A stretch of 64,000 nt of DNA from Escherichia coli (GTDB lineage: Bacteria; Pseudomonadota; Gammaproteobacteria; Enterobacterales; Enterobacteriaceae), in assembly GCF_044324785.1 (NCBI RefSeq), contig NZ_CP172127.1; one strand, 5' to 3'. This document shows positions 49,409 through 60,637 of the stretch, piece by piece (position 1 is the first letter of the stretch; every line of letters starts with the position of its first letter). The position numbers and the translations under genes were made by a program. The notes under the pieces are model-generated. The model saw only the letters and a list, made by a program, of their open reading frames with translations, searched no databases and was not told the DNA's origin.

Positions 49409-49822
<414 letters not shown>

Positions 49823-50130
49823 TTATTCAGCCTCCTGTCTGGGTCAGCCGAATCCCGGGGAGGCAAGGAACGTGTTAAAGGTCGGCTGAAAAATGACGCG
49901 TTATAGTACTGACATACCCCGCTAAACTCAAGGCCAGCCGACAAATAAATCTCATCTTTCACCAAATCGTACTAACACACTGATTTGAAGTTCATCACAC
50001 ATCATCATGGTGTTTTTTTGAACAACTGCATCAGAAATGGTCACCATCAACTTCTTTATCATTGATTAAAATTAAATCAGAAGATCATCACAAAGGAGAG
50101 CACACAAAGTCAGCCGTCGAGGAGGTATCT

Positions 50131-50406
50131 ATGTTCAGTCGTGTTTTAGCCCTTCTGGCTGTGCTTTTGCTAAGTGCAAATACATGGGCAGCCATTGAAA
50201 TTAATAACCACCAGGCCAGAAATATGGACGATGTGCAAAGCTTAGGCGTGATTTATATCAACCATAACTTCGCCACTGAAAGTGAAGCACGTCAGGCATT
50301 AAATGAAGAGACAGATGCGCAGGGCGCAACGTACTACCACGTGATTCTGATGCGGGAACCGGGGAGTAACGGCAATATGCACGCCAGCGCGGATATTTAT
50401 CGCTAG
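50131..50406 (+). CDS. yjfY: Small periplasmic DUF1471 (YdgH/BhsA/McbA-family) protein
   Basis: 91 aa from internal ATG after GAGGAG RBS; signal peptide; C-terminal Y-x-hydrophobic...IYR motif. Confidence 0.8.
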   Translation: MFSRVLALLAVLLLSANTWAAIEINNHQARNMDDVQSLGVIYINHNFATESEARQALNEETDAQGATYYHVILMREPGSNGNMHASADIYR

Positions 50407-50446
50407 CACCAGGTATAACCAACGAAACATTGCCATAGTTTGCTTT

Positions 50447-50471
50447 GCCCCCTTCGCAGGGGGCTTTTTTT
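50447..50471 (+). terminator. Rho-independent terminator after yjfY
   Basis: GCCCCC-TTCGCA-GGGGGC followed by TTTTTTT. Confidence 0.55.
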
Positions 50472-50534
50472 GAAAAACGGCTGCGGAATTAGACCAGTTA
50501 TCTCCCGAGGAAGGAAATTTCCGCAGCGCGTGTT

Positions 50535-51221
50535 TTACTTCTGCCCGTAATAAGCGTTGGGACCATGCTTACGCATGAAGTGTTTATTCATCAGGAAGCT
50601 GTCGATGTGATTCAGTTGTGGGTTAATGCCGCGGGCAATCCACGCCATTTTCGCCACTTCTTCCATCACCACCGCATTATGCACCGCATCGTGAGCATCT
50701 TTCCCCCAGGCGAACGGCCCGTGCTGATACACCACAATCCCCGGTGTATGCAGCGGCTCGGCGTTGCCCAGCGTTTCGATAATTACTTTGCCGGTGTTCA
50801 GTTCGTACTCGCCCTGCACCTCTTCTTCGCTTAATCCGCGCGTACACGGGATATCGCCAAAGAAGTAGTCGGCGTGCGTGGTGCCTAACGCCGGGATCGC
50901 CAGCCCCGCCTGCGCCCATGCGGTAGCATGAGTGGAGTGGGTATGGACAATGCCACCAAGCGACGGATAACGACGGTAGAGTTCGAGATGCGTCGCAGTA
51001 TCGGAAGACGGGCGATACGCCCCTTCCACCACCTTGCCGCTCATATCGACCACCACCATATCGCCTGCTTTCATGGTTTCGTAGGCGACGCCGCTGGGCT
51101 TGATCACCACCAGCCCGCGTTCGCGGTCGATGGCGCTGACGTTGCCCCAGGTAAAGGTCACCAGCCCGTAACGCGGCAGATCCATGTTGGCTTCAAATAC
51201 CTGCTGTTTCAGCTTTTGCAT
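50535..51221 (-). CDS. ulaF: L-ribulose-5-phosphate 4-epimerase (ascorbate utilisation)
   Basis: 228 aa from internal ATG ([21 protein letters not shown]...), class II aldolase/adducin fold. Confidence 0.9.
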
Positions 51222-52075
51222 TATGCCGCCTCCACCATGCCAGCTTTGGCCATGCGCGCTTTCACCCAATCACGCGCTTTCGCCACTTCCGCCGCCGGGT
51301 CTTCCGCCGTTTCGCTCCACATCTCAATCAGGTACGGCCCGCAATAGCCACTCTGTTTGAGCGTTTCGAAGCAACGTTCGAAATCCACTACGCCTTCGCC
51401 AAACGGCACATTTTTGAAGACGCCTGGTTTGGTGTCTTTCACATGCACCGCGACGATATGCCCAATTCCGGCCTGCAATTCCATCTGCACGTCGTTGTCC
51501 CACGCCGACAGGTTGCCGATATCCGGATAGAGCTGGAACCACGGGTTGTTGAGATAGTGCGCATAGCCCAGCGCCTTGCTGATGGAGTTCATCAATGGAT
51601 AATCCATGATCTCCATTGCCAGCGTCACCTGCGCGCGGCTTGCCATCTCAACGCTCTCTTTCAGGCCGTCACGGAAACGACGACGCGTTTCGTTATTGGC
51701 TTCCTGATAGTAAACGTCATAGCCCGCCAGTTGGATCACGCGAATGCCAACGTCCTGGGCGAACTGGATAGCTTTACGCATAATCTCCAGCCCCTGCGCC
51801 CGCACCGCGTCATCTTCGCTACCCAGCGGGAAACGACGATGAGCAGAAAGGCACATAGACGGTACACGCACGCCGGTTTCAACAATCGCATTCACCAGCG
51901 CCAGACGCTGCTCGCGGCTCCAGTCGAGGCGCGACAGGCGATCGTCAGTTTCATCTACCGACATCTCGACAAAATCGAAGCCTAACGTTTTTGCCAGTTG
52001 CAGCCGTTCCAGCCAGCACTCCCCGGCGGGGAGCGCTTTTTCATAGATGCCAAGCGGGATTTGTTTGGACAACAT
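51221..52075 (-). CDS. ulaE: L-ribulose-5-phosphate 3-epimerase
   Basis: 284 aa xylose-isomerase-like TIM barrel. Confidence 0.9.
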
Positions 52076-52084
52076 ATCCGCTCC

Positions 52085-52735
52085 TTAGCCCCACAGTTCG
52101 GCGATGGAACGTTTGAACTGACGCGCAGCTTCAACCGGAGAAGCGGCATCACGGATACTGCGACCAGCGATAAACACATGAATCGGAATGCCTTTGAACA
52201 GCGGCAGATCTTCCAGCGCTAGGCCACCGGTGACGGTCACTTTAAAGCCCATATCGGACAGACGTTTGATCGCGGTAATGTCAGCTTCGCCCCACGCCAC
52301 GCCTGCGGCCTGCGCGTCACGGCTGCGGTGATAAACCACCTGCTGAATACCTGCGTCGCGCCACTGTTGCGCCTGTTCCCAGGTCCAGTAGCCAGTCAGT
52401 TCGATCTGCACGTCGCCGTTAAACTCTTTTGCCACGTCCAGCGCGCCCTTGGCGGTGTTGATATCCGCACAGCAAATTACGGTCACCCAGTCAGCGTTGG
52501 CTTCGAAGCACATACGAGAAAGGATTTTGCCCGCATCGGCAATTTTGGCGTCTGCCAGTACGATTTTGTGCGGGTAAAGCGCTTTCAGGTCACGAACTGC
52601 ACGCACGCCTTCGCCTACGCACAGAATGGTGCCCACTTCGATAATGTCGACTTCTTCGGCAATCAGGCGAGTGGTTTCGTAGGCGCTATCCATAGTCTGG
52701 TTGTCCAGCGCGACTTGCAACATTGGTAATGACAT
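52085..52735 (-). CDS. ulaD: 3-keto-L-gulonate-6-phosphate decarboxylase
   Basis: 216 aa from internal ATG ([20 protein letters not shown]...), OMP-decarboxylase-like. Confidence 0.9.
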
Positions 52736-52748
52736 GTTCAATTCCTTC

Positions 52749-53213
52749 TTAAGCTGCCGCGTTGGTGCGGTCAATGAGATCCAGTACTTCCTGCTCGGTA
52801 CGGCAGGCACGTAAACGGTCGAAATTCTCTTCATCTTCAAACAGATTGACGATCTGCATGATGCCCACTTCCTGGTGAGTGTTGGCATCGACCGCCGCCA
52901 TGGTGATGAGGATATCCACCGGATCGTTATCTTCGTGGTTGAACTCCAGCGGCTTTTTCAGCGTCACCAGCGCAAAACCGGTTTTCTTAACGCCCTCTTC
53001 CGGGCGACCGTGCGGCATTGCCAGGCCTGGTGCGAGCACAAAGTACGGACCGTGCTGTTCAACCGCATCCAGAATCGCCTGGTAGTAACGCGGCTCGACA
53101 ACATCCGCCGCCACCAGCAGGTCAACGCCGATTTTCACTGCGTCCTGCCATGTCTCAGCTTCAGCCTGCAGGCGGATGGATTTATTCTCCGCCAGCGAAT
53201 CACGTAATTTCAT
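52749..53213 (-). CDS. ulaC: PTS ascorbate-specific EIIA component
   Basis: 154 aa PTS EIIA-2 fold. Confidence 0.9.
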
Positions 53214-53222
53214 GGCGCGTCC

Positions 53223-53528
53223 TTACTTCACGTCCTGCGGGAAATGCTCTTTGATCACTTCCAGCAGTTTCGGGCCAAAGTCGGCAGGAGAGAGCATGTT
53301 GCGCACACCAACCACGTATTTGTTGCCGGTCACGGTGATTTCGCCCGCAATGTGCGTAGAAGCGATGATGATATCCGCGCCGCTCAACTCGCTTTTGTAT
53401 TCGCCAACCGCGCAGCTGTTTACCGTGTGGTCAATGTTTGATTGGGTTAAAAACTGGTCCACTTTCATCTTCATGATCATGGAACTGCCTTGTCCGTTGC
53501 CACACACAGCCAGAATACGTACGGTCAT
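53223..53528 (-). CDS. ulaB: PTS ascorbate-specific EIIB component
   Basis: 101 aa from internal ATG ([20 protein letters not shown]...), active-site Cys. Confidence 0.9.
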
Positions 53529-53543
53529 AATCAAAACTCCTTA

Positions 53544-55295
<1,752 letters not shown>

Positions 55296-56360
55296 ATGAG
55301 TAAAGTGAAAAGTATCACCCGAGAATCCTGGATCCTGAGCACTTTCCCGGAGTGGGGTAGCTGGCTGAATGAAGAAATTGAACAAGAGCAGGTCGCCCCT
55401 GGCACATTTGCGATGTGGTGGCTAGGCTGCACCGGGATCTGGCTGAAATCAGAAGGTGGCACCAACGTTTGCGTTGATTTCTGGTGCGGCACTGGCAAAC
55501 AAAGTCACGGTAACCCGTTAATGAAACAGGGTCACCAGATGCAGCGCATGGCTGGCGTGAAAAAACTGCAGCCAAACCTGCGCACCACCCCGTTTGTTCT
55601 TGATCCGTTTGCGATTCGCCAGATCGACGCGGTACTGGCGACTCACGATCACAACGATCATATCGACGTTAACGTCGCTGCTGCCGTGATGCAGAACTGT
55701 GCTGATGACGTACCGTTCATTGGACCGAAAACCTGCGTTGATTTGTGGATTGGCTGGGGCGTACCGAAAGAGCGTTGCATCGTGGTCAAACCTGGCGATG
55801 TTGTAAAAGTGAAAGACATTGAAATTCATGCGCTTGACGCTTTCGACCGTACTGCACTGATCACCCTGCCTGCCGATCAAAAAGCGGCTGGCGTACTGCC
55901 AGATGGCATGGACGATCGCGCAGTAAACTACCTGTTCAAAACCCCTGGCGGTTCCCTGTATCACAGTGGCGATTCCCACTACTCTAACTATTATGCGAAG
56001 CACGGTAACGAACATCAGATCGATGTGGCGTTAGGATCGTATGGTGAGAACCCGCGCGGTATTACCGACAAAATGACCAGCGCCGATATGCTGCGTATGG
56101 GTGAAGCCCTGAATGCGAAAGTGGTTATCCCGTTCCACCACGACATCTGGTCAAACTTCCAGGCCGATCCGCAAGAAATCCGCGTGCTGTGGGAGATGAA
56201 AAAAGATCGTCTGAAGTATGGCTTCAAGCCGTTTATCTGGCAGGTGGGCGGCAAATTTACCTGGCCGTTGGATAAAGACAACTTCGAGTACCACTATCCG
56301 CGTGGTTTCGATGATTGCTTCACTATTGAACCGGATCTGCCGTTCAAGTCATTCCTGTAA
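55296..56360 (+). CDS. ulaG: L-ascorbate-6-phosphate lactonase (metallo-beta-lactamase fold)
   Basis: 354 aa from internal ATG ([20 protein letters not shown]...), HDHNDH-type metal motif. Confidence 0.9.
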
Positions 56361-56383
56361 TCTGTCGTTTATACCGGATAGCG

Positions 56384-56414
56384 TGGAGTAGTTCGCGCTA
56401 TCCGGCGTAGTATT
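56384..56414. repeat. Palindromic hairpin after ulaG (REP-like or terminator)
   Basis: CCGGATAGCG...CGCTATCCGG inverted repeat. Confidence 0.35.
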
Positions 56415-56467
56415 TCCTGGCTATTTCAAATATCATCTAAAAAAATCAAATTTTATCGGAATAGCTC

Positions 56468-57223
56468 ATGACTGAAGCACAAAGACATCAAATCCTCCTG
56501 GAAATGCTCGCACAATTGGGCTTTGTGACCGTTGAGAAAGTCGTTGAGCGTCTGGGAATTTCGCCTGCCACTGCGCGACGCGATATCAATAAACTTGACG
56601 AAAGCGGCAAACTGAAAAAAGTGCGCAATGGCGCAGAAGCTATTACCCAACAGCGCCCACGCTGGACGCCGATGAATCTGCATCAGGCGCAGAATCACGA
56701 TGAAAAAGTACGTATTGCTAAAGCGGCCTCGCAGCTGGTTAATCCGGGCGAAAGCGTAGTCATCAACTGCGGCTCCACCGCGTTTCTGCTTGGGCGGGAA
56801 ATGTGTGGCAAGCCAGTGCAAATCATCACTAATTATCTACCGCTGGCAAATTACCTGATCGATCAGGAGCATGACAGCGTGATCATTATGGGCGGACAGT
56901 ACAACAAAAGTCAGTCCATCACTTTAAGCCCGCAAGGCAGCGAAAACAGTCTCTATGCCGGGCACTGGATGTTTACCAGCGGCAAAGGGCTGACAGCAGA
57001 AGGGTTGTATAAAACCGATATGTTGACGGCAATGGCAGAGCAGAAGATGCTGAGCGTGGTAGGGAAATTGGTGGTACTGGTTGATAGCAGTAAGATTGGC
57101 GAACGCGCGGGAATGCTTTTTAGCCGTGCCGATCAAATCGATATGCTGATCACCGGCAAAAATGCTAACCCGGAAATCCTGCAACAACTGGAAGCGCAAG
57201 GGGTCAGCATTCTGCGTGTTTAA
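56468..57223 (+). CDS. ulaR: DeoR-family repressor of the ula regulon
   Basis: 251 aa, N-terminal HTH, C-terminal sugar-phosphate-binding domain. Confidence 0.9.
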
Positions 57224-57969
57224 AGATGCTGGCGGAAAAATGTCACGGCAGCATCTAACGCCTCAGGCGTAATGCGGTGACGCACGCCTGGCTGCCATGA
57301 ACAGGTTAGCAGTTTATCCCGTCCCGTCTCGCTTAAGGCCTGCTGCAAACGTAGTGATTCGTCGGCAGGCACGACGTCATCGTCAAGGCCATGCCACAGC
57401 AGTAGAGGTCTGTCAGCAAGTTGTTCCAGGTGGTTTGTCGCTTCCCACTCTGCCAGCGGCGCGACAATGTTATTGAATTCATTCTGCTGTGCTGCCGTTT
57501 CAGGTATCAGCGGTGGAAACAGTGAACGGGCGAGTGATGTAAAATAGCCCGATCCCATCATGCTGGCGGTACATTTCACCGTGGGGTGGCGAGCGGTAAT
57601 TCCCAGTGCCGTCATCGCGCCCATCGACGCGCCACCGACTGCCAGACGGTCAGCAAGCAGCCAGTTTTCTTCGGCTATTGCCGCACGTAACGTAGTGAAT
57701 TCCTGCATACTTTGTAGCAAAATTTGCCAAAATTGATTTAACCGCCGCGCTGCGTCGCCCCTAAAACGGCTACCGTGATCGGGCGCATCCGGCATGATCA
57801 CTCGCAAACCAGCCTGCGCCAGCGCAACGGCAAAATAGCTATACACCAGACTGGACGAAGTAAAGCCGTGATAAAAAATCACGCACGGTAATGGGGTATC
57901 TTTTTGCCCGACAGGATAAGCATGAAGAACGGGAATATCTGCCAGCTCGCGTGATTCTATTTCAATCAT
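57220..57969 (-). CDS. yjfP: Alpha/beta-hydrolase esterase
   Basis: 249 aa, nucleophile elbow GGASMG; convergent with ulaR, stop codons overlap. Confidence 0.85.
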
Positions 57970-58150
57970 CTGTCTCTCCTTTTTGTCTGGTATGACATGA
58001 AGAAATCCTTAGCACAAGTTTCTGCTGGCGGTATTAGTTCATAATGTTGAGATGTGGGTTACGCTTTCATCACGTTTTCATTCGAAAATCGCGTACCAGG
58101 TAACAATTCGGGAACATTCCCCCAAAGTTAAATTAATAAGGCACTACACT

Positions 58151-58480
58151 ATGGTTAGCAGGAAACGTAATAGCGTTATTTACCGGTTTGCCAGTTTATT
58201 ATTGGTGTTGATGTTAAGTGCCTGTAGCGCACTGCAAGGTACGCCACAGCCAGCACCGCCAGTAACGGACCATCCGCAAGAGATTCGCCGCGACCAGACG
58301 CAAGGGTTACAGCGAATAGGTAGCGTAAGCACGATGGTTCGGGGTTCTCCGGATGACGCATTAGCAGAAATCAGAGCGAAAGCTGTCGCGGCAAAAGCTG
58401 ATTATTACGTTGTCGTCATGGTGGACGAAACCATCGTGACAGGACAGTGGTATTCACAAGCCATTTTGTACCGTAAATAA
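58151..58480 (+). CDS. bsmA: Lipoprotein BsmA (biofilm/stress), DUF1471-like
   Basis: 109 aa from internal ATG (MVSRKRNSVIYRFASLLLVLMLSAC lipobox); C-terminal YYVVVM...ILYRK. Confidence 0.8.
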   Translation: MVSRKRNSVIYRFASLLLVLMLSACSALQGTPQPAPPVTDHPQEIRRDQTQGLQRIGSVSTMVRGSPDDALAEIRAKAVAAKADYYVVVMVDETIVTGQWYSQAILYRK

Positions 58481-58628
58481 ATCAGACAACTTACATAGTC
58501 AGCTTTACATTGCTTTGCGTCCCTATGCGTTTACCTGTGCACAATAAATTACCGGCTGGAAGCCTGGGCGTTTATTACCGCGATGGAATGCCCTGCAACA
58601 TGTGGGGAAACGAAAAATGGAGCTGACG

Positions 58629-58904
58629 ATGAAACAATTACTTGCCTCACCCTCGCTGCAATTAGTGACTTATCCTGCGAGCGCCACGGCACAGTCTGCA
58701 GAATTCGCCAGTGCTGACTGCGTGACAGGCCTGAATGAAATAGGTCAGATCTCAGTTAGCAATATTTCAGGGGATCCGCAGGACGTGGAACGTATCGTGG
58801 CGTTAAAGGCTGATGAACAAGGTGCGTCATGGTACCGCATTATTACCATGTACGAAGACCAGCAGCCTGATAACTGGCGCGTACAGGCGATCCTGTATGC
58901 GTGA
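58629..58904 (+). CDS. yjfN: Small periplasmic DUF1471 protein
   Basis: 91 aa from internal ATG (MKQLLASPSLQLVTYPASATAQS...); C-terminal WYRIITM...ILYA. Confidence 0.75.
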   Translation: MKQLLASPSLQLVTYPASATAQSAEFASADCVTGLNEIGQISVSNISGDPQDVERIVALKADEQGASWYRIITMYEDQQPDNWRVQAILYA

Positions 58905-58928
58905 GTGTCATCTACAGCAAATGAACAA

Positions 58929-58959
58929 TGCCGGATGCGGCGCGAGCGCCTTGTCCGGC
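58929..58959. repeat. REP element after yjfN
   Basis: GCCGGATGCGGCGCGAGCGCCTTGTCCGGCC. Confidence 0.5.
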
Positions 58960-59011
58960 CAACAATTTTCACATATTTCATATAGTTAATCGAAACCAGC
59001 GTCGTATACGC

Positions 59012-60637
59012 TTACAAACACACTCCTCCCGTCGCCCGCAGCAATAAATCATTCTGGATCTGCTCTGACAACCGTACGCCGCCGCGCGTATCTAACATCA
59101 CCTGACACCACGCCTGCGCCATTGGCGGAGAGGCATATTTCAACATTTGCGCACCGCAGCCCAGCAGGAATAGCTGATGAGTAATCTCTCGCCCCAGTTC
59201 TTCAGCTGGCTTACGCAGCTGCTGCTGTAAACGACGAACCGCGCGATCAAAATAGCGCTCCTGCCCTTTCACTTCCACAAATGCTTCCGACAATAAGTCG
59301 TATACGCCCGCTTGCTTATTGAGAACGCGCAGCACATCCAGGCACATAATATTGCCGGAACCTTCCCAGATACTGTTTACCGGCATCTCCCGGTAAAGCC
59401 GCGGCAGCTCGCTCTCCTCGCAATAACCAATGCCGCCCAGCACCTCCATCGCTTCGGCCACAAACGGCATACCTCGTTTGCAGATCACAAATTTCGCCGC
59501 AGGCGTAAATAAACGCGCCCACAGGGCTTCTTTGGCATCGGCACGCCGGTCCCACGCTCGCGCAAGACGAAACAGCAACGCCGTTTGCCCTTCAAGCTGA
59601 AGTGCCATGCGACTTAAGACATGACGCATAAGGGGCTGTTGGATCAATGGATTACCAAAAACATGGCGTTGATGTGCATGATAAATCGCCAGCGAAAATG
59701 CACGGCGCATCATGGCATGGCTACCCAGGGCGCAATCAAAACGCGTCATCCCACCCATTTTCAGGATCAGACGAATTCCTTCCCCTTCCTGCCCCAACAA
59801 CCAGCCAATGGCATCCTGAAACTCCACTTCGCAGCTGGCGTTAGAGCGATTACCCAGCTTATCTTTCAGCCGCTCGAGGCGAATCGCGTTGCGTTGCCCG
59901 TCAGGCAAAAAGCGCGGCACAAAAAAGCAGGACAAACCGCCCGTAGTCTGCGCCAGCACCAGATGCGCATCGCTTTGCGGCACCGAGAAAAACCATTTAT
60001 GCCCCACCAGCCGATAAGAGCCATCTTCCAGGCGCTCTGCGCGGGTGGTGTTGCTCATGACATCGGAACCGCCCTGCTTTTCCGTCATTCCCATGCCAAT
60101 CAACAAACCGCGTTTTTGTCCACCTGGCAATAAGTGAGAATCGTAGCGATCGCTCAGCAGCGGGGTGGTCCAGTCCTGAAACAGCGCGGGTAACATCTGT
60201 AACAGCAATGGCGTGGCGGCAAAGGTCATGGTTATCGGACATAACGACCCTGCCTCAACCTGTGCGTGCAACATAAAACGCGCCGCGCGCGCCACAAATG
60301 CGCCAGAGCGAGCGTCTTCTTCCCAGGCCAGATTATGTACCCGATTGGTACATAGCGCCTGCATCAGCAGGTGCCAGGCGGGGTGAAAACGCACATCGTC
60401 CAGACGGCGTCCTTGCGCATCGTAGCGCAATAATTCAGGCGGATTCACATTCGCCAGACGCCCCAGTTCAAGGGATTCAGCCGTTCCTAACTGCTGACCA
60501 ATACTGGCTAGAAAATCGCTATCCCAGCCAGCACCTTCACGCGTTACCGCTTCGCAGAGCGCGCCATCAGACAGGTATAAGTTGCTGTTATTTAATGGTA
60601 TAGGTTGATTAAAAACGGTGTGAGTTTGCCAGTGCAC
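59012..60637 (-). CDS. aidB: AidB, acyl-CoA-dehydrogenase-like adaptive-response protein
   Basis: 541 aa with non-ATG (GTG) start at V7 of ORF-track protein (..HWQTHTVFNQPIPLNNSNLY..), ACAD fold. Confidence 0.9.
   Translation of the reverse strand: MHWQTHTVFNQPIPLNNSNLYLSDGALCEAVTREGAGWDSDFLASIGQQLGTAESLELGRLANVNPPELLRYDAQGRRLDDVRFHPAWHLLMQALCTNRVHNLAWEEDARSGAFVARAARFMLHAQVEAGSLCPITMTFAATPLLLQMLPALFQDWTTPLLSDRYDSHLLPGGQKRGLLIGMGMTEKQGGSDVMSNTTRAERLEDGSYRLVGHKWFFSVPQSDAHLVLAQTTGGLSCFFVPRFLPDGQRNAIRLERLKDKLGNRSNASCEVEFQDAIGWLLGQEGEGIRLILKMGGMTRFDCALGSHAMMRRAFSLAIYHAHQRHVFGNPLIQQPLMRHVLSRMALQLEGQTALLFRLARAWDRRADAKEALWARLFTPAAKFVICKRGMPFVAEAMEVLGGIGYCEESELPRLYREMPVNSIWEGSGNIMCLDVLRVLNKQAGVYDLLSEAFVEVKGQERYFDRAVRRLQQQLRKPAEELGREITHQLFLLGCGAQMLKYASPPMAQAWCQVMLDTRGGVRLSEQIQNDLLLRATGGVCL

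Follow-up and report, generated by a model that had tools for sequence, protein, structure and literature searches.

Three genes for small, predicted secreted proteins of the DUF1471 (YdgH/BhsA/McbA-like) family, yjfY, bsmA (yjfO) and yjfN, lie within 8.8 kb of one another in a 64,000-nucleotide stretch of Escherichia coli DNA (contig NZ_CP172127.1 of assembly GCF_044324785.1; the whole stretch is referred to as the window), with the ula regulon between the first gene and the other two. The question raised by this locus is how three members of one family came to stand so close together. In an earlier note, made from the letters of the sequence, their clustering on either side of the ula regulon was taken to suggest local duplication and diversification. 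The answer, which is probably correct, is that the three are the known E. coli genes of these names and are DUF1471 paralogues of an old four-gene block that has been split by a ula cassette. The evidence of most weight for a common local origin is the gene order, and not the position beside ula.

According to this reading, yjfY, yjfP (on the opposite strand), bsmA and yjfN would form an old conserved block between the rpsF operon and aidB, older than the split between Enterobacteriaceae and Yersiniaceae. bsmA and yjfN probably arose by tandem duplication, a step that we infer from a grouping with 80% bootstrap support, and yjfY most likely stems from an older duplication at the same place, as its linkage to the other genes suggests. 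The 6.7-kb ula cassette, lying where yjfY and yjfP converge, would have stretched a cluster of 2 kb to 8.8 kb. Each of the three genes is predicted to encode one small alpha+beta domain that is exported to the cell envelope. BsmA would have become a lipoprotein of the outer-membrane type, YjfN would have gained a hydrophobic C-terminal residue which, going by the literature, binds and activates the periplasmic protease DegP while YjfN is consumed, and YjfY would have kept the basic tail of the family.

Identification of the three genes and their family

The three genes were placed in the window as follows.

50131-50406, plus strand: yjfY, 91 amino acids (open reading frame and RefSeq annotation of the orthologous locus)
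58151-58480, plus strand: bsmA (yjfO), 109 amino acids (open reading frame and RefSeq annotation)
58629-58904, plus strand: yjfN, 91 amino acids (open reading frame and RefSeq annotation)

The lengths, coordinates and strands given in the earlier note agree with the open reading frames and with the RefSeq annotation, and the C-terminal strings quoted there (YYHVILM...ADIYR, YYVVVMV...AILYRK and WYRIITM...AILYA) are all present. Membership of DUF1471, which had been proposed on the basis of this pattern, was confirmed by a Pfam search. PF07338 scored 71.6 bits for YjfY, 56.9 for BsmA and 63.4 for YjfN, far above the cut-off of 27, with E values from 5e-20 to 2e-15 and with model positions 1-55, 1-55 and 1-54 of 55 covered, respectively. 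The domain corresponds to residues 35-91 in YjfY and to residues 53-108 in BsmA. BsmA also passed the NCBIfam BsmA equivalog model NF011433 (152.7 bits, cut-off 100). A six-frame scan of the 64-kb window with a hidden Markov model (HMM) of the family found exactly three DUF1471 domains and no further domain or pseudogene copy.

Pairwise similarity, named in the earlier note as a check, was seen by full-length BLASTP for two of the three pairs. BsmA and YjfN were aligned with E=4e-8 and 30% identity, and YjfY and BsmA with E=1e-4 and 27% identity, partly through their signal peptides. Full-length BLASTP gave no alignment of YjfY with YjfN, and under the refuting condition set in the earlier note this pair fails; the miss is due to BLAST seeding on short sequences at 23% identity. 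Because of this miss, and because the YjfY/BsmA alignment runs partly through the signal peptide, full-length BLASTP was dropped in favour of Smith-Waterman alignment of the domain. With the 57-residue domains, z scores of 10.5 (BsmA/YjfN), 6.4 (YjfY/BsmA) and 9.9 (YjfY/YjfN) were obtained, and none of 300 shuffles reached the observed score. Pairwise identities within the trio are 23-32% in E. coli, the highest being the 32% of the BsmA and YjfN domains.

The DUF1471 family is small, with 562 clusters at 50% identity among 1.84 billion representatives. Relatives were found in Escherichia, Salmonella, Citrobacter, Enterobacter, Klebsiella, Kluyvera, Buttiauxella, Serratia, Nissabacter, Edaphovirga and Erwinia, and the range of the family is the Enterobacterales, apart from a few records labelled Pseudomonas lundensis, 'Chryseobacterium' and a metagenome-assembled genome 'Proteobacteria'. 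E. coli has ten DUF1471 paralogues, and 12 subfamilies are recognised (PMC4092069, PMC12096828); YjfY, YjfO and YjfN are three of the approximately 12 subfamilies described by Eletsky et al. 2014 (PMC4092069), who took the adjacency of yjfN and yjfO to be consistent with expansion by gene duplication. The seven other paralogues of strain K-12 were located and are rclB/ykgI, yahO, ybiJ, mcbA, bhsA, ydgH and yhcN. In simulations of random placement on a 4.64-Mb genome, three of ten paralogues fell within 8.8 kb in 0.125% of cases (p ~1.3e-3). Solved members of the family (SrfN, YahO and domains of YdgH) have a mixed alpha+beta fold, and a profile of the ten E. coli paralogues matches six solved DUF1471 chains. 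Searched alone against the PDB, YjfY matched 2jna (best), 2ma8 and 2m2j; BsmA alone and YjfN alone found no PDB chain.

Gene order in other genomes

The genes and signals that surround the trio in the window are listed below.

Up to 49804, minus strand: rplI-rpsR-priB-rpsF (transferred annotation)
50447-50471, plus strand: intrinsic-terminator-like hairpin GCCCCCTTCGCAGGGGGC followed by a T-run, after yjfY and before the convergent ulaF (terminator scan)
50535-57223, both strands: the whole ula regulon cassette, outside the DUF1471 family
50535-54941, minus strand: ulaFEDCBA (transferred RefSeq annotation)
55296-56360, plus strand: ulaG (transferred RefSeq annotation)
56468-57223, plus strand: ulaR (transferred RefSeq annotation)
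57220-57969, minus strand: yjfP, an esterase gene divergent from bsmA (open reading frame and annotation)
Starting at 59012, minus strand: aidB (transferred annotation)

The gene order was taken from the RefSeq annotation of the best-matching E. coli genome (98.6% identical) with a constant offset, and the list of open reading frames agrees with it. Positions 48.3-60.7 kb of the window correspond to the E. coli rpsF-aidB region. Megablast of positions 50000-59000 recovered the region from 5425 of the 5426 complete E. coli genomes, the closest being 98.6% identical. The convergent genes ulaR (plus) and yjfP (minus) overlap in their stop codons at 57220-57223 (TTAA), which is the exact right edge of the cassette. 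The terminator hairpin after yjfY is common to genomes with and without ula.

Loci in other genomes were collected in a scan of species representatives with a BsmA alignment. With the proteins of the window, 80 Enterobacteriaceae loci were mapped, and 66 more distant BsmA loci lay outside this sample. The order with ula was found in about 55 of the Enterobacteriaceae loci, with the trio spanning 8.6-10.1 kb. About 17 loci have the order rpsF-yjfY-yjfP-bsmA-yjfN-aidB without ula, constant in both order and orientation. At these the trio spans 1.9-2.1 kb and the gap between yjfY and yjfP is 68-173 bp in most; two of them (Citrobacter amalonaticus AUH and Enterobacter sp. JUb54) are wider, with about 1.4 kb between yjfY and yjfP and about 3.3 kb for the whole trio. 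Since the trio is compact in genomes without ula, the ula regulon interrupts the cluster, rather than the paralogues being arranged around ula. ula is a cassette in an older cluster, and its flanking by the trio is an accident of this genome. The position on either side of ula had been described correctly in the earlier note; what lies behind it is the interruption of an older 2-kb cluster, and no functional reason for the arrangement was shown.

The same block was found in Serratia liquefaciens (CP014017), where the order is rplI-rpsR-priB-rpsF, an 88-amino-acid DUF1471 protein, yjfP, a 102-amino-acid DUF1471 lipoprotein, a 91-amino-acid DUF1471 protein, a DUF350 protein, aidB, rlmB and rnr, without ula. 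The best E. coli matches of the three Serratia DUF1471 proteins are YjfY (3e-18), BsmA (3e-35) and YjfN (6e-28), and the first of them has the mature N-terminus EIxxHQA and the tail HEPxxN...H.SA..YR in common with YjfY. In Edaphovirga the order is rpsF-yjfP-bsmA-yjfN-aidB, and in Nissabacter rpsF is followed by a 132-amino-acid gene without a Pfam match, an MCP gene, bsmA, yjfN and aidB. yjfY is missing from the interval between rpsF and yjfP in Siccibacter (L063), Intestinirhabdus (L081), Superficieibacter (L077), Nissabacter and Edaphovirga (L016 and L017), and bsmA-yjfN is kept in all of these. An HMM scan of Nissabacter and Edaphovirga revealed no decayed yjfY between rpsF and yjfP.

Across the Enterobacteriaceae, it is exactly the yjfY/yjfP junction that either carries the ula block of about 6.7 kb or lacks it, and both states can occur in a single genus. 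In Kluyvera, ula is missing from K. cryocrescens, K. intermedia and K. georgiana and present in K. ascorbata; Raoultella terrigena is without it and R. ornithinolytica has it; similar alternation is seen in Buttiauxella, Enterobacter and Citrobacter. The gap of K. georgiana holds the last 71 nt of ulaR, 87% identical to K. ascorbata (24 amino acids by tblastn), and the gap of Enterobacter vonholyi keeps a 23-nt piece of ulaR. These 3' remnants of ulaR identify both gaps as secondary deletions. No ula sequence was detected in the remaining ula-less gaps. ula has thus been lost at least twice.

The loci in the observation of ula presence and absence are numbered L037, L040, L051, L058, L060, L071, L080, L082, L084, L087, L090 and L091. 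Several variants were also recorded. A Phytobacter-like contig (L007) has the E. coli order with an extra gene for an MFS-type sugar transporter (858-1979) between yjfY and ulaF. In Klebsiella, Raoultella planticola, Kosakonia and some Citrobacter (L026, L027, L064, L075, L076, L079 and L089) the yjfY-yjfP gap is about 8.1 kb and not 6.8 kb. A typical Enterobacteriaceae rpsF-yjfY-ula-yjfP-bsmA-yjfN-aidB locus was found in record CACSKA010000007.1 (L054), labelled 'Chryseobacterium sp. 18061', and is nearly the same as that of Citrobacter sp. 18056 (L052) from the same study. The 'Chryseobacterium' assembly is probably mislabelled or contaminated.

Relationships among the three domains

The relationships among the domains were studied by neighbour joining (NJ) with bootstrapping. 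The trees were based on 57 alignable columns and included the twelve E. coli domains, with distances between subfamilies of more than 1 substitution per site. A first bootstrap of 150 family representatives (50% identity) alone was unresolved, with 39% for BsmA+YjfN. In a second, syntenic orthologues from Serratia, Edaphovirga, Nissabacter and the Phytobacter-like genome were added, and no other split of the twelve E. coli domains then had as much support as BsmA+YjfN (401 of 500 bootstraps, 80%). The three repeats of YdgH grouped in 347 of 500 bootstraps, below BsmA+YjfN.

The best partner of BsmA is YjfN, both by the domain z score given above and by hhalign (86, compared to 70 for YhcN, the next), and the NCBIfam BsmA model gives YjfN 51 bits, which equals the top match of YjfN. 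When the two domains are compared inside a single genome, BsmA and YjfN share 38-43% identity in Serratia, Edaphovirga, Nissabacter and the Phytobacter-like genome. In the window the two genes are neighbours on the same strand, with a spacer of 148 bp. Local duplication, as proposed in the earlier note, is supported for bsmA-yjfN. For yjfY it is plausible by linkage; sequence cannot place YjfY, and its duplication was not demonstrated in this way.

All 120 matches listed in a search for YjfY homologues were at least 82% identical, with no distant relatives among them. A beta-hairpin loop that is three residues longer in YjfY, BsmA, YjfN and the YdgH domains was tried as a clade marker and rejected, the 'long-loop' clade being found in only 7 of 300 bootstraps. 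Three divergent family representatives, P0242 (L009), P0235 (L011, Serratia marcescens) and P0319 (Erwinia mallotivora), belong to other subfamilies at unrelated loci, as their gene context showed.

Properties of YjfY, BsmA and YjfN

Export signals were judged by hydrophobicity calculation only, as the maximum 10-residue Kyte-Doolittle mean. YjfY has a canonical Sec signal peptide, MFSRVLALLAVLLLSANTWA-A, with a hydrophobic core of 3.48. BsmA has the lipobox LSAC with Cys25, Ser at position +2 and a Pro-rich linker ahead of the domain; its hydrophobic core is 2.89, and Cys25 was invariant in six orthologues. Residues 1-23 of YjfN (58629-58697; MKQLLASPSLQLVTYPASATA) have a weak hydrophobic core with a maximum of 1.45 in Escherichia, and the other E. 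coli DUF1471 paralogues each have a core of at least 2.09. The core of YjfN is similarly low, at 1.0-1.6, in Klebsiella, Raoultella and Kluyvera, and reaches about 2.0-2.3 in Citrobacter, Enterobacter, Salmonella and Serratia. It is followed by a conserved, cleavage-site-like ATA-QS, and the mature N-terminus AQSAEFASADC is highly conserved. The signal peptide or lipobox ascribed to all three proteins in the earlier note was thus found in YjfY and BsmA, and the signal of YjfN is the least secure.

The C-termini also differ. In YjfY and BsmA the chain closes with R or K, in some cases with a polar residue behind it. YjfN has A, V or L as its last residue in 82 of 86 orthologues, with R only in Nissabacter and Edaphovirga, and YjfN of the window ends in ...AILYA with a hydrophobic C-terminal Ala. 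YjfN has been described as a 'suicide activator' of DegP that acts via its hydrophobic C-terminal alanine (Kim et al. 2018, J Bacteriol 200, as cited in PMC12096828), and the conservation of the hydrophobic tail would fit this published role. Together with the invariant lipobox Cys of BsmA and the basic tail of YjfY, it bears out the diversification that had been proposed for the trio.

The link of the family to biofilm and stress, also mentioned in the earlier note, is found in the literature. BsmA/YjfO is the biofilm peroxide resistance protein of K-12 and affects biofilm formation under stress (PMC4092069), and it has been tied to biofilm, peroxide and acid stress. YjfY is uncharacterised (PMC4092069). 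Among the matches listed, YjfY orthologues are 82-99% identical in Escherichia, Citrobacter, Salmonella and Enterobacter, and YjfY is the most conserved of the trio between genera, with 82-89% identity of the E. coli protein to those of Salmonella, Citrobacter or Enterobacter.

Alternative explanations

Several observations weigh against the old local cluster as set out above. The trio was monophyletic in 94 of 500 bootstraps (19%), the same as BsmA+YjfN+YhcN. The top E. coli match of YjfN is YhcN (z 18.7, hhalign 105), and the YjfY domain ranks YdgH domain I (z 15) and YhcN (12.4) ahead of YjfN (9.9) and BsmA (6.4). Given the 57 columns and the distances of more than 1 substitution per site, the deep branching appears essentially unresolvable from sequence. 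As yjfY is absent in five genera, it could be a later arrival beside an older bsmA-yjfN pair. Export of YjfN in E. coli would depend on a weak predicted signal peptide. The ula event at the root could have gone in either direction: the clean ula-less loci seen in Serratia, Raoultella terrigena and Kluyvera cryocrescens may show the original state, or an old loss may have produced them.

Some of these observations favour an explanation in which only bsmA and yjfN are tandem duplicates, and yjfY came from a YhcN, SrfN or YdgH-like branch and arrived by rearrangement or transfer, so that the cluster is partly coincidental. The ranking of YdgH domain I and YhcN ahead of the neighbours, the low support for a clade of the trio and the five genera with bsmA-yjfN and no yjfY all point in this direction. 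Moreover, the top NCBIfam match of YjfY is the YhcN model, and its best PDB relative, 2jna, is not a member of the cluster. However, YhcN scores best or near-best with most subfamilies and behaves as a slowly evolving, central member of the family; a high YhcN score is nearly ubiquitous and therefore says little about ancestry. In profile-profile comparison, YjfN (76) ties with YhcN (77) as the partner of YjfY. yjfY occupies the same slot between rpsF and yjfP in Serratia and in the Enterobacteriaceae, so its linkage is ancient, and three of ten genes within 9 kb are expected at random with p ~1e-3. An origin of yjfY outside the cluster is possible, although somewhat unlikely.

It is improbable that the proximity is held by selection for shared function or regulation, with yjfY, yjfP, bsmA and yjfN as an envelope-stress module. 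The order and orientation of the block are conserved in about 75 species of two families while ula varies inside it, the action of YjfN is on DegP and on proteins of the outer membrane, and stress phenotypes have been connected with the lipoprotein BsmA (PMC4092069, PMC12096828), all of which would suit such a module. In opposition to this, yjfY has a terminator of its own and converges on yjfP, bsmA is transcribed away from yjfP, and no evidence of co-transcription was seen here. Only yjfN of the four genes is listed in the Cpx-associated iModulon. In the YdgH study, double mutants of ydgH with bsmA, yhcN or yjfN had no compound growth defects, and an insertion of 6.7 kb between the members is tolerated. 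It is more doubtful still that yjfY-yjfP-bsmA-yjfN may be a conserved module for envelope quality control with cooperating members, for instance with the lipoprotein BsmA in the outer membrane, YjfN feeding DegP from within the periplasm, and YjfY and the esterase YjfP in the same pathway, and with ula as a cassette exchanged by recombination that has repeatedly entered and left the gap between yjfY and yjfP.

Finally, a resemblance by chance or convergence of short secreted proteins, as the missing BLASTP alignment of YjfY with YjfN and the identities of 23-32% might suggest, is practically out of the question and is refuted by the end-to-end matches to PF07338, by the z scores with none of 300 shuffles reaching them, and by the match of the family profile to six solved DUF1471 structures.

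Other features of the locus

The stretch 50000-59000 is not very close to any of the 5426 complete E. coli genomes (best 98.6%), and it is 90-96% identical to the GTDB representatives of Escherichia species. An RpsF leader (Rfam RF02893, 110 bits) was found at 49802-49886 on the minus strand, in the spacer between rpsF and yjfY, from which yjfY runs divergently to rpsF; the Rfam search of the region gave this leader alone. A promoter scan upstream of yjfY, bsmA and yjfN gave no sigma-70 consensus, a result that is uninformative and is not evidence of absence. The Shine-Dalgarno sequence GGAG of yjfN is at 58620-58623. A conserved 'MELTM' extension upstream of yjfN was considered as an alternative start of yjfN and rejected, as it contains the GGAG Shine-Dalgarno sequence of the annotated ATG. 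Directly 3' of yjfN, at 58931-58960, is the imperfect GC-rich palindrome GCCGGATGCGGCGCGAGCGCCTTGTCCGGC, which resembles a REP element.

Comparison with known systems

The literature already covers the genes, their family and the number of its paralogues in E. coli, and records that yjfN and yjfO are neighbours; two of the three proteins have assigned roles. A modest addition to the published account of the family is that the trio is a 2-kb cluster in genomes without ula, with ula as a gain/loss cassette inside it. The value of this is partly corrective, in that the trio is not organised around ula and that only bsmA and yjfN are duplicates on sequence evidence. The fixed place of yjfY beside yjfP, bsmA and yjfN is also a modest lead to the function of a highly conserved, uncharacterised, predicted secreted protein.

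The trio shares with the DUF1471 or 'YhcN family' an N-terminal signal for export, a domain about 57 residues long and a C-terminal motif of Tyr and a basic residue; all three are full-length, single-domain members and show no departure at the level of the family. BsmA differs from most DUF1471 proteins by being a lipoprotein, as judged by sequence, in which a Pro-rich linker joins the lipidated Cys to the domain. YjfN is set apart from the other members by a hydrophobic C-terminal residue where the others carry K or R, and by the weak core of its signal peptide in Escherichia. YjfN of the window has the same locus and the same ...AILYA ending as the YjfN of Kim et al. 2018.

Local duplication is seen elsewhere in the family, in three cases that serve as positive controls. 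One is a tandem DUF1471 pair in a further taxon. In E. coli, ybiJ and mcbA (NC_000913.3, 837665-842056) are about 4 kb apart on one strand with ybiI, ybiX and fiu between them, which makes them another local duplication that has been split. No other pair in the family is as similar as YbiJ and McbA (z 22.4, hhalign 132), compared to which the yjf trio is older and more diverged. YdgH, with three DUF1471 domains in one protein, is another local duplication, and its copies are much more alike than the members of the yjf trio.

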